Assembly: GCA_964016885.1 (NCBI GenBank)
Contig: OZ024742.1
Span: 6,200,001-6,264,000 of the forward strand
DNA: 64,000 nucleotides
Origin: Eledone cirrhosa
Taxonomy: Eukaryota
Reading direction: 5' to 3'
Shown in pieces: positions 27,358 to 34,934 of the stretch. A model generated the notes under the pieces. It did no database searches. It was not told the DNA's origin and was given only the letters and a program-made list of their open reading frames with translations. Within the stretch, counting starts at the first letter, position 1; the number at the start of each line of letters is the position of its first letter. Both the position numbers and the translations under genes were made by a program.

Positions 27358-27585
27358 TATATATATATATATATATATATATATATATGTAGATAAATCT
27401 ACCAAGAGTTTACGGTAGTGCCCAATCCGTATGAAGAACTCAATGTAATCCGGATATCATGGAAAGAAGAGATGCATTCAAAAATCACTTTCGGTGAAAG
27501 ATAAACGGAATACAGAGTCAAGATAAAATATTAAGAAAATAATGAATAAAACAATGAAACAGTTTCTTATATTAAACAAAAAAAG

Positions 27586-27738
27586 TTCATTATTTAACGA
27601 TCGTTTCTAGGACATATATGTGTTAGAATTGGCATGCATATTCAACAGATCTATGTACAAAATTATACAAAATTATACAAACTATCAAATATAATATACA
27701 TACCAACACATACATATGCCGTCTTCAGAAATAATGAA
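27586..27738 (-). ncRNA. Type I hammerhead (mirror of 33864-34016)
   Basis: Reverse complement of the plus-strand motif. Confidence 0.82.
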
Positions 27739-30503
27739 ATATATTTATTGATAATAACAACAATTCAAAATTACAGGTCTGTTTGAGAACAGAGTTCAAA
27801 TTGACCAATGAAATACACAAAAATATATCAAGAAAATACAGTTAGATGTGTGTATATATGTAAGTAACTTCGTTCACAGATATGCATAAAAATATATGTT
27901 CACATGCATACGCATGTCGAAAAAATGTATGTAAATACAAAAATTCAGGGCTAATGTCTCTGTATGTTTATAATCTACAGATAAAATACACATACGCATA
28001 TAAACATATATACATTTATATATACACACATATACATACATTCATACACACACGCGCATATACACATAAACATACACATACCCACGAACACACACACACA
28101 CACACACACACACACACACACACACACACACACACACACACACACACACACACACACACACACACATATGTATATATTATTATTATAACTATATGGATAT
28201 TAAGGCGCACACATAAACACTGCCACATATATTTACATCTAGATGCAGAAGTAGGTAAAGGGGGTCAGTAATTACTAAGGGTGTCAGACAACTGCCTATT
28301 TATAAAATGTATCTATAAATTTAGAAATAAAAAGAAATATATTAAAAAGAAATAAACAGGTAAAATATATACTCATACATAAAATACACACCGATATACA
28401 TATATATATATATATATATATATATATATATACATATATACATATATATATATATATATACATACATTTATATATAGAGACACATACATATACATATATA
28501 AATACATAGACACATATACATACACACATATATATATACATATATTCACAACACACATATATATATACACATATATGTACATACACATACACACATACAT
28601 ACATATACATATATACATATACACACATATATACACACATATATACACATATATATATATATACATACACGCACATATATATACACACACACACACATAC
28701 ATATACGTATATATACACACACATACACATATCCATGTATGTATATACACATACAACCACACGCTCACACACAACTCAGACATACATAAATAAAGAGATA
28801 TACATACACATATATATATATATATATATATATATATATATAGATATATACATACACATAAATATATATACACACACACACACACATATACATACACATA
28901 TATATATACATATATATATATATATATATATATATATATATATACATATATATATATATATATATATATATATATATATATATATATATATATATATATA
29001 TATATATAAATAAATACATACAGTCAGACAATTATGCACACATATATATATATACATACACACATCTCTACAAATATATATACACATACACACGCACACA
29101 TACATATATACATACACACATATATATATATATAGACATATATATACACATATATATACATATATATACATATATATATATATATATATATATATATATA
29201 TATACAATCATACACACTTATTTACATGCGCACATATGTATTTTTATACTCACATACAAACACCCAAACATACATACATACTTACATACACATACATCCA
29301 CGCTTACAAATACAAATAATTATAGGGGGGGAGGGGATTAACATTATTAGTGGGAAATAGTAAAGATAGGTTTCAAGGAACATAGAATATTAATCTGCAT
29401 TTAGATCATAATATGTGTTTACATAGTAGTTTCAGTATTAGGAAATGTAAGAAAGAAGGCAAAATTATGCATTTTAATATAAGTAGACTATTAATTATAG
29501 GTTAACTAAATTAAAAATAGTTAATATATTGATTTCTAAGGTGTATACTACTTAGGTTTATAATATTTGAAGCGGAATTTTGAAGTTAAACAGTAGTATT
29601 GTATTAATTATAGCATAACTAAATTAAAAATATTAACATTATGGTATCAATATTAGGAAATGAATTTAGTAATAGGGAAAACCAAATCAAGTATTTCATC
29701 GGTAGTAGAATATAAATTATAGGTTAACTAAATTAAAAACTATATATTAATTTCTATAGTATATGTTAATTTGGTTTATAATAATTAAAGCAGATTTTGT
29801 ATTTTATCTATAGTAGAATATAATTATAGGTTAACAAAAATTAAAATTAATATATATATATATATATATATATATATATATATTTAATTGTAAAGAATAT
29901 ATTAATTAGGTATATATTTAAAAGTTTATCTCAGTTTATGATTATATGATATTCTGCAATCCATCTGTATTAGAATTTTAATTTTTGAGCTAATTAAATT
30001 AAAATTATAGGTTAACTAAATTAAAATTAATTTATTAATAAATTTCTAAATTGTACATTAATTAGGTTTATAATATTAACAAATATTTCTCTGTTATTGA
30101 TTACACGATATTTTGTTATATTTCATCTGTAAAGGAATTTTAATAAAAGGTTAAATAAATTAAAATTAATCTATAAATTAATTTACAAAGTATATATTAA
30201 TTATGTTAATAATATTTAAAAGTTTTTCACAATTTATGATTACACAATATTTTTTAATTTCATCTGTAGTAGAATTTTAATTAAATTAAAGTTATAGGTT
30301 AACTACATTTAAATTAAATTATATATTAATTTCTAAAATATAAATTATTAATTAGGTTTATAATATTTAAATGTTTTTCTCAGTTTATGATTACACGATA
30401 TAATTAATTCCTGTCGCTTATTTAATAGGATATCCTTAGATTTCATTATTTCAAATAGTTCTTGGGAACATAATCTACTAAATTAATAAATATAACTAAA
30501 AAT

Positions 30504-31274: not shown

Positions 31275-33863
31275 TAATTTATATTTTAGAAATTAATATA
31301 TAATTTAATTTAAATGTAGTTAACCCATAACTTTAATTTAATTAAAATTCTACTACAGATGAGATTAAAAAATATTGTGTAATCATAAATTGTGAAAAAC
31401 TTTTAAATATTATTAACATAATTAATATATACTTTGTAAATTAATTTATAGATTAATTTTAATTTATTTAACCTTTTATTAAAATTCCTTTACAGATGAA
31501 ATATAACAAAATATCGTGTAATCAATGACAGAGAAATATTTTTTAATATTATAAACCTAATTAATGTACAATTTAGAAATTTATTTATAAATTAATTTTA
31601 ATTTAGTTAACCTATAATTTTAATTTAATTAGCTCAAAAATTAAAATTCTAATACAGATGGATTGCAGAATATCATGTAATCATAAACTGAGATAAACTT
31701 TTAAATATATACCTAATTAATATATTCTTTACAATTAAATATATATATATATATATATATTAATTTTAATTTTTGTTAACCTATAATTATATTCTACTAT
31801 AGATAAAATACAAAATCTGCTTTAATTATTATAAACCTAATTAACATATACTATAGAAATTAATATATAATTTTTAATTTAGTTAACCTATAATTTATAT
31901 TCTACTACCGATGAAATACTTGATTTGGTTTTCCCTATTACTAAATTCATTTCCTAATATTGATACCATAATGTTAATATTTTTAATTTAGTTATGCTAT
32001 AATTAATACTCTACTACTGTTTAACTTCAAAATTCCGCTTCAAATATTATAAACCTAAGTAGTATACACCTTAGAAATCAATATATGAACTATTTTTAAT
32101 TTAGTTAACCTATAATTAATAGTCTACTTATATTAAAATGCATAATTTTGCCTTCTTTGTTACATTTCCTAATACTGAAACTACTATGTAAACACATATT
32201 ATGATCTAAATGCAGATTAATATTCTATGTTCCTTGAAACCTATCTTTACTATTTCCCACTAATAATTTTAATACCCCCCCCCTATAATTATTTGTATTT
32301 GTAAGCGTGGATGTATGTATGTGTATGTAAGTATGTATGTATGTTTGGGTGTTTGTATGTGAGTATAAAAATACATATGTGCGCATGTAAATAAATGTGT
32401 ATGATTGTATATATATATACATATATATATATATATATATATATATATATGTATATATATGTGTATATATATGTCTATATATATATATGTGTGTATGTAT
32501 ATATGTATGTGTGCGTGTGTATGTGTATATATATTTGTAGAGATGTGTGTATGTATATATATATATGTGTGCATAATTGTCTGACTGTATGTATTTATTT
32601 ATTTCTTTATTTCTTTATATATATATATATATATATATATATATATATATATATATATATATATATATATATATGTATATATATATGTGTATGTATATGT
32701 GTGTGTGTGTGTGTGTATATATTTATGTGTATGTATATATCTATATATATATATATATATATATATGTGTGTGTATGTATATCTCTTTATTTATGTATGT
32801 CTGAGTTGTGTGTGAGCGTGTGGTTGTATGTGTATATACATACATGGATATGTGTATGTGTGTGTATATATACGTATATGTATGTGTGTGTGTGTGTATA
32901 TATATGTGCGTGTATGTATATATATATATATGTGTATATATGTGTGTATATATATGTGTGTATATGTATATATGTATATGTATGTATGTGTGTATGTGTA
33001 TGTACATATATGTGTATATATATATGTGTGTTGTGAATATATGTATATATATATGTGTGTATGTATATGTGTCTATGTATTTATATATGTATATGTATGT
33101 GTCTCTATATATAAATGTATGTATATATATATATATATGTATATATGTATATATACATATATATATATATATATATATATATATATATATATATATATAT
33201 ATATATATATATATATATATATATATATATATATATATGTATATCGGTGTGTATTTTATGTATGAGTATATATTTTACCTGTTTATCTCTTTTTAATATA
33301 TTTCTTTTTATTTCTAAATTTATAGATACATTTTATAAATAGGCAGTTGTCTGACACCCTTAGTAATTACTGACCCCCTTTACCTACTTCTGCATCTAGA
33401 TGTAAATATATGTGGCAGTGTTTATGTGTGCGCCTTAATATCCATATAGTTATAATAATAATATATACATATGTGTGTGTGTGTGTGTGTGTGTGTGTGT
33501 GTGTGTGTGTATGTTCGTGGGTATGTGTATGTTTATGTGTATATGCGCGTGTGTGTATGAATGTATGTATATGTGTGTATATATAAATGTATATATGTTT
33601 ATATACGTATGTGTATTTTCTCTGTAGATTATAAACATACAGAGACATTAGCCCTGAATTTTTGTATTTACATACATTTTTTCGACATGCGTATGCATGT
33701 GAACATATATTTTTATGCATATCTGTGAACGAAGTTACTTACATATATACACACATCTAACTGTATTTTCTTGATATATTTTTGTGTATTTCATTGGTCA
33801 ATTTGAACTCTGTTCCCAAACAGACCTGTAATTTTGAATTGTTGTTATTATCAATAAATATAT

Positions 33864-34016
33864 TTCATTATTTCTGAAGACGGCATATGTATGTGTTGGT
33901 ATGTATATTATATTTGATAGTTTGTATAATTTTGTATAATTTTGTACATAGATCTGTTGAATATGCATGCCAATTCTAACACATATATGTCCTAGAAACG
34001 ATCGTTAAATAATGAA
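33864..34016 (+). ncRNA. Type I hammerhead ribozyme with ~115-nt domain II
   Basis: Perfect 10-bp stem I TTCATTATTT/AAATAATGAA; CTGAAGA at 33874; GAAA at 33995; palindrome AACGATCGTT; GUU triplet ending at 34006. Confidence 0.85.
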
Positions 34017-34934
34017 CTTTTTTTGTTAATATAAGGAACTGTTTCATTGTTTTATTCATTATTTTTTTAATATTTTATATATATATATATATTTTTTTGT
34101 CGATCAACTTTCATCAAATCTGACCGAGGAAACAATGTTTCCATTGGTCTTTCCAGTTGCTAGTACTATCTATCGGTGGCAACTCCAGTTTGAAATTAGT
34201 TAGACCATTACTAAACAGAGTTCTCAATACTTGGTGTAGTAGGGTATGGTGATATTATAAACATTAAAATATTCCTACTTGATCAAATCAAGTAGGAAAA
34301 TTTTACGTGGTCACTGAACCTGTTAGAAATAGGAACCATATCTCCCACAGTTATGTATGCCTTGAAGGTTTTTGTAGCTTTTTACGTTCTGAGTTGGAAT
34401 CTCTTCGAGGTTACATTTTCGTTTCATCCTTTCTTGGTCGATGAAATAAGTTTCCCTCCTCCTCTCCACCAAATATCTGGCGTTCTACCTATGTTAGAAA
34501 CAATTTTATCAAATGCCTGACAATTGCATCATCGTGTTGGTCGTTCATATGAATGAGATTCTAGTTTACTAATGTTTCAACGAGATTGTTCCGTATGGAT
34601 TATTTGGCTCAGAAATTTAATTTTTCTTCCAACAACAGCATATATAATTATATCCCCATATAGTTAGTCGAGAAACTAAAATTCCTTTCTATTGTTACCT
34701 CATCGAAATGTTCTGTAAATCAGTCAGGAAAGTGTGTACACATGAATTATCTGTAAATAAACTGCGAGATTGCTATGTAAATGTTTGAATACTTTTCAAG
34801 TTTATGTTCCGGGGGGGGGGGGGGGGCTTCGTTTCCATTTCACTGCATAGTAATCACAATTCCCTAACAATTCAGTTGAAAATATCACCTAGATTCTAAG
34901 ACTATTCAACAGAATTCGTAATATAATCGGCTTG

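Follow-up and report, generated by a model that had tools for sequence, protein, structure and literature searches.

A Penelope-like element family of Eledone cirrhosa with two fixed 3' ends, one of each at mirror-image insertions

In L1 twin priming, a second primer from the other strand leads to an inversion, as we propose below for another kind of element; the second L1 site falls at random, and the two L1 arms do not overlap. Inverted, 5'-truncated copies are also a known trait of Penelope-like elements with an endonuclease (EN+ PLEs). The 30–40-bp tail of EN+ PLEs has been termed optional and ascribed to endonuclease resolution or to self-priming (PMC8557442, PMC3846280). For the PLE Poseidon_Ac, in vitro work has shown cutting and extension of both strands, with starts at two sites on the RNA (PMC11167929). 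The octopus family Hydra-1_Obim, of the Hydra clade, is recorded without a pseudo-long terminal repeat (pLTR), and published consensus sequences may omit the 3' untranslated region (UTR) (PMC8557442). The present analysis concerns a window of 64,000 nt from Eledone cirrhosa (contig OZ024742.1, positions 6,200,001 to 6,264,000, forward strand; coordinates are those of the window), which contains a palindromic insertion of a Hydra-clade EN+ PLE. In this family a copy ends at either of two fixed sites, which lie 133 nt from each other, and insertions with a mirror arm have, with rare exceptions, one end of each type. We propose, with a probability of roughly 0.78, that the locus is one 5'-truncated insertion into a TA repeat, for which the element enzyme cut both strands and two cDNAs, primed at the two sites on the same RNA, were joined head to head.

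The 6.7-kb palindrome described in the sequence-only reading of this stretch is real. Its arms, 27523–30478 and 31144–34078, pair as an inverted repeat around a 665-nt spacer and are 93.7% identical with microsatellite indels counted in; over 2,038 aligned non-repeat bases they differ by 22 substitutions (1.1%). The left arm had been called the more truncated one, which holds for its 5' end; its 3' end is the longer by 133 nt of element sequence. The central frame, as reported, is open and extends into the right arm by about 130 nt; it has 266 codons from stop to stop. The parts of the locus are as follows.

27356–27388, no strand: (TA)n target, left flank
27390–30478, minus strand: inverted arm, from nt ~2306 of the open reading frame (ORF) through 3' UTR and pLTR as far as the long B (tail-plus) end
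27390–27522, minus strand: 133-nt tail between the two fixed 3' ends
27586–27738, minus strand: type I hammerhead motif of the left arm; cut predicted at 27596/27595; A66, the main stop base, at 27735
30478–30479, no strand: head-to-head junction with ~1 nt overlap, unique in the genome
30474–31274, plus strand: open frame, last third of an 811-aa ORF (linker, CxCx5C, GIY-YIG)
30479–31143, plus strand: 665-nt spacer, the portion copied by the longer arm only
31144–34078, plus strand: sense arm with ORF end, microsatellite-rich 3' UTR, pLTR and the short A (tail-minus) end
33864–34016, plus strand: type I hammerhead motif of the right arm; predicted cut after 34006, A66 at 33867
34079–34092, no strand: (TA)n target, right flank; the target-site duplication is unreadable here

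The arm with the A end reaches ORF nt ~1,610 and the arm with the B end ORF nt 2,306. The junction 22-mer, with one mismatch allowed, has a single match in the 3.0-Gb genome, at this locus. A bulged hairpin is predicted at ~27438–27519, inside the tail and directly behind site A. The proximal 3' UTR (29447–30406 and its mirror) consists of degenerate ~139-nt repeats, the first of which overlaps the ORF end.

When the genome was searched with the window ORF (148 scored among 72,705 candidates), full-length relatives with a reverse transcriptase (RT), whose existence the sequence-only reading had anticipated, were found, among them the natural full copy P0001 with an 811-aa ORF comprising RT and GIY-YIG. 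The scored matches show 95–98% amino acid identity (the window's own copy excepted), with open frames that vary in length, up to 828 aa and longer; the window frame corresponds to residues 550–811 of P0001 (94% identical), and the tail 17-mer has 2,412 exact matches in the genome. Family copies end either at A, without the tail, or at B, with it. In a set of 100 loci chosen by similarity to the window ORF, both ends of a mirror insertion could be called in 63 cases, and 62 of these have one A and one B; the sole exception, L090, is an internal pLTR, and L049 and L050 among the 62 are duplicates. Two pairs, L049/L050 and L032/L035, lie 0.6–0.8 Mb apart with the same junctions and represent segmental or assembly duplicates. 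Forty loci were extended after a prediction had been written down, and the 36 that gave an end were all of the predicted type (36/36). An independent sample of 40 tail loci, taken from the first tail matches on contig C1 minus two already in the first set, yielded an A partner in 27 cases by BLAST and in one more by eye, and a B partner in none; one further partner ends elsewhere, nine loci have no mirror arm and two run beyond the analysed stretch. The outer ends of all five arrays considered below are likewise one A and one B.

Neither end belongs to a fixed polarity: the sense arm with the ORF has the A end in 34 loci and the B end in 28, which rules out a simple fold-back. In the window it is the shorter arm that has a tail which the longer one lacks, so the shorter arm is not a fold-back copy. 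Single copies without a mirror arm terminate at A or at B as well. Folding of the natural copy predicts hairpins behind both sites, with the same 4-bp closing stem and a UU bulge, each set back from its site by a few bases. The hairpin behind B is located in the 5' UTR, a region absent from the genomic 3' ends observed here; should this hairpin be required, the template of the long arms must be tandem or circular.

The two arms of one insertion are close kin. Arm-to-arm divergence in the 3' UTR has a median of 0.46%, compared to 3.7% between loci, and the partner arm is the nearest or tied nearest relative in 14 of 15 cases. An interruption of the TA tract is duplicated on both flanks, over ~8–14 nt, in 11 of 29 informative loci (one doubtful). 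Near-perfect palindromic junctions occur at L048, L049, L174, L189 and L205; microhomology at the junction amounts to 0–5 nt in clean cases, a measure confounded in its exact value by single-nucleotide polymorphisms between the arms and given without a computed null.

By its motifs and targeting, with the reference proteins compared as alignment text by eye, the element is a young EN+ PLE of the Hydra clade. The EN+ hallmarks, i.e., pLTR, partial tandems, inverted truncated copy and tail, are all present, and both ends of nearly all family copies sit in (TA)n. Across 97 aligned sequences, an RWR motif (K in 65/97, R in 17/97) and a DKT motif are found; the CxCx5C linker is present without CCHH, C671 and C679 as well as Y692, Y705, G707 and R716 are invariant, and CxxC and CxH surround conserved E and N, with C769, C772, E775 and H799 nearly invariant. 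The full-length model built on these sequences reached a predicted local distance difference test (pLDDT) score of 86, and its first match was TERT, the telomerase RT (E 6e-9). Pfam detected no domain in the window ORF or in P0001, while the homolog P0075 clears the Pfam GIY-YIG cut-off; a PDB sequence search returned nothing for P0001, and a profile search gave a weak retron RT match only (E 0.02). As the single-sequence model of the window ORF (pLDDT 35) is unusable, the GIY-YIG call rests on motifs and homologs. The unit length of 6.05–6.9 kb departs from the <3 kb usual in the Hydra clade, which is a descriptive size criterion.

The ribozyme motif that had been noticed near the outer ends of the palindrome was confirmed in both arms as a type I hammerhead. 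In the right arm, stem I pairs 33864–33873 with 34007–34016, the core stands at 33874, stem II comprises 114 nt, GAAA lies at 33995 and stem III is a palindromic 2 bp. The constrained fold lies within 1.3 kcal/mol of the minimum of the stretch, and the core is 99.7–99.8% conserved versus 97% for stem II (127 copies). Rfam did not detect a hammerhead and gave sub-threshold hairpin matches only; the motif in the pLTR is present by inspection and by the constrained fold, and its cleavage is predicted. In one copy (L052:1572-1737), a deletion at a 4-nt microhomology has removed most of the hammerhead from the 5' pLTR, and the 3' pLTR is intact.

Arms of the family stop preferentially at certain places in the pLTR. 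Genome-wide, 807 arms stop at A66, at the start of the hammerhead, and 1,638 read on (about one third of ~2,445 stop), the latter figure being a read-through count only, from a search pattern that allowed the reference base. The B arm stops within positions 53–74 in 17 of 40 unbiased loci. A66 sits in what we take to be an initiator-like motif. We read A66 as the likely transcription start. An untemplated C follows A66 in 29 of the first 100 rows counted by hand, about 12 of which are otherwise explicable; as a sign of cap copying it is suggestive only. A SINE-like (short interspersed element) repeat flanks the window locus (26934–27122) and is inserted in the family pLTR at A66 or beside the ribozyme cut in L040, L064, L088 and L124. 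At the predicted cut itself 79 arms diverge, sorted by hand into small indels (8), joins through stem I (12) and other stops (59); at a control position 30 nt off, counted over half the width, there were 8 arms. Six joints have both arms ending at the predicted cut. The pattern suggests occasional copying of cleaved RNA in vivo.

Among the first 100 of 318 matches to the tail–5' UTR junction, about 11 are true head-to-tail arrays, each with its own unit length. Within each of the five arrays examined, units differ by 0–3 of ~1,130 nt, with one unrelated older neighbour at 9.9% omitted from this figure, and the median difference between arrays is 2.6%. The predicted cut site is seamless in array units. 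One array, R1, forms a 38.8-kb palindrome with about three near-identical full units per arm (about six altogether), one A and one B outer end, and partial innermost units.

G000:C2:36290960-36329720: R1 palindrome (L212-L216)

Of 17 arms running beyond the ORF start to A66 for a second time, none stops there, L040 being a SINE insertion at A66, and the second-pass pLTR is nearest or tied nearest to its own first pass in 4 of 4 cases. Such arrays would follow directly from rolling reverse transcription with two primers.

According to the twin-primed reading, the element protein would cut both strands of (TA)n, a single RNA would be the template of one cDNA primed at A and another primed at B, and the ends of the two would be joined head to head; A and B would be RT start sites, each marked by the hairpin just behind it, and at the window locus the A-primed arm would have run 665 nt further than the B-primed arm. 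Identical arms and the near-perfect palindromes at some junctions could also be expected if one cDNA, or an antisense RNA (PMC3846280), copied itself by fold-back and the endonuclease trimmed the ends. Such self-priming is improbable, as in the window and at 33 other loci the longer arm lacks a tail that is present on the shorter one, copies without a mirror arm end at A or B too, and a sequence-specific staggered trim would fix the end per arm, yet the ends are split 34:28. Two separate adjoining insertions or a misassembly can be given very little weight. TA tracts do attract stacked insertions (L204, L209), but chance pairing predicts about half same-type pairs and unrelated arms, and a fold-back read artefact should leave both arms and ends identical, whereas the locus has 22 substitutions and two family ends of different type. 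No piece across the junction was found in the X1-X3 contigs, which collapse the repeat, or in the X16 reads, which are reduced-representation data from another sample. That the ORF lies between inverted repeats recalls a terminal inverted repeat (TIR) DNA transposon, or a self-propagating endonuclease-only element with long TIRs, which is hardly conceivable here: the junction is unique, the frame lacks both the conserved Glu and a start codon, RT-bearing parents are abundant, and multiple copies with the same arms, spacer and ends and an intact enzyme were not found. The sequence-only reading had dismissed such an element in favour of two outward-facing cDNA copies of an RT-bearing one, and on both points it is borne out by the unique junction and the RT-bearing parents. 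Several observations nevertheless weigh against twin priming. Near-identical arms could arise via two transcripts of one source or gene conversion, and in a 266-column pLTR segment of low resolution only 15 of 48 partners rank as nearest or tied nearest. No clear duplication is seen in 18 of the 29 informative flanks. Nor is twin priming obligatory, since a mirror arm is lacking in about 15 of 100 long copies and in 9 of 40 tail loci. Between 12 and 16 of the arms with a stop at the cut have partners that continue beyond it, a configuration that a single already-cut RNA cannot yield. Finally, a pile-up of B arms colliding with site A, possible from one shared template, seemed enriched in the ORF-selected set (three arms) but is weak genome-wide (17 versus 13 at a control site) and was discarded as a signal.

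Twin priming leaves a choice of template. Short stubs would result where a capped or ribozyme-cut linear RNA is primed close to its 5' end, and priming on a unit-length RNA circle made by the hammerhead would give long and multi-unit arms. We consider it slightly better than an even bet that long arms such as those of the window were read from an RNA circle and that linear capped or cut RNAs gave the stubs. Twin priming with no circle, on linear transcripts of tandem arrays or with strand transfer from pLTR to pLTR, and with arrays growing by unequal crossover, is possible but doubtful. The head-to-tail arrays mentioned above could serve as linear sources, and Poseidon_Ac works in vitro without need for ribozyme cleavage (PMC11167929). 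However, the near-identity of units within arrays compared to those of different arrays, the seamless cut site, the roughly three units on both arms of R1 with partial innermost units, and the absence of second-pass stops at A66 (0/17, versus 807 of ~2,445 arms genome-wide) all speak against it. In its wider form, the circular reading holds that an autonomous PLE replicates via a 6–7-kb RNA circle, which its own hammerhead would cut and close, and that an RT dimer would dock at two hairpin-marked sites and travel around this circle, starting from the two ends of a single DNA break; judging from the genomic copies, we lean marginally towards it. If it is true, pLTRs, partial tandems, inverted copies, the one-sided tail and the ribozyme would be products of one mechanism, of which the window locus would be a short product, and relatives of telomerase would copy RNA by a rolling mechanism, with up to 39 kb written per event.

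The window locus itself is an ordinary, dead, 5'-truncated insertion of a layout already known, and it is most likely without function. The central frame had been described as an RT-less GIY-YIG endonuclease ORF; compared with the family, it is no intact endonuclease gene. A Glu conserved in 95 of 97 aligned sequences is Lys in this frame (codon 31161–31163; 1 of 107 codons seen), the left arm retaining Glu; a private 18-nt (6-aa) deletion lies near 31125–31130, and no in-frame Met precedes residue 212 of 266. On these three grounds the frame is not a working gene. As the likely element start sites point outward, the hairpin transcript envisaged in the sequence-only reading as dsRNA and a possible siRNA or ADAR substrate would require read-through from elsewhere. 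The frames listed in 1–38000 are repeats and retroelement remnants, a list that short exons would escape. A 578-codon open frame occupies 17346–19082 on the minus strand and presumably resembles the 3' part of a long interspersed element (LINE) RT. Small palindromes lie at 26138–26366 and 27158–27271, the latter in TA just left of the locus, where it may be a stub of another family. Further to the right are a 17-bp tandem array of 143 copies (35156–37584) with long open frames on the minus strand, and a 24-kb CACCA-type satellite (39977–64000) with extreme strand skew and 32–37-nt higher-order units.

The Hydra clade, which includes Hydra-1_Obim, is among the described systems closest to this family (PMC8557442). 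Shared traits are an RT followed by a C-terminal GIY-YIG domain, the RW[KR], DKT, CxCx5C, CxxC and CxH motifs, the lack of CCHH, a (TA)n target and a hammerhead. By eye, the alignment blocks in the supplement of that paper match P0001 motif by motif, and Hydra-1_Obim appears similar yet distinct from the window family. The window family differs from the clade in its 6–7-kb unit with a microsatellite-rich 3' UTR, as opposed to <3 kb, and has its own 133-nt tail and 114-nt stem II. The inverted 5'-truncated copies of EN+ PLEs have the same layout, a one-sided tail and short target-site duplications (PMC8557442, PMC3846280); unlike those, the window family has nearly strictly one end per type, in either polarity, and arms of up to three full units. 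The inverted copy and the one-sided tail are known already. Neither a one-of-each rule nor a circular template for an autonomous PLE was found in the literature searched, which included parts of PMC4209133 and PMC6765202 and left uncovered older Penelope papers and the supplements of PMC11167929 and bioRxiv 10.64898/2026.07.22.740005. The family bears on the origin of tandem and inverted PLE structures, called open in PMC8557442, and on the in vivo role of PLE hammerheads, called open in PMC7761336 and PMC8557442. It supplies exact positions of two putative start sites, a likely transcription start, a ribozyme cut and intact young copies, making each step testable. Poseidon_Ac has two internal sites of RT initiation by which its tail is defined, cuts and extends both strands and has an AT-rich target, traits that are present or proposed in this family too; the available text on that element does not link the two sites to two arms and reports no RNA ends at the ribozyme cut (PMC11167929), where genomic arm ends accumulate in the window family. 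The non-LTR (long terminal repeat) retrozymes of animals share the hammerhead, tandem genomic copies and a proposed circular template copied by a PLE RT (PMC7229834, PMC7761336, bioRxiv 10.64898/2026.07.22.740005). They are, as described there, non-coding circles of 170–400 nt, whereas the window family is a protein-coding element of 6–7 kb whose circle is putative. In contrast to L1, both proposed start sites of the family are fixed, and both arms copy the same sequence.

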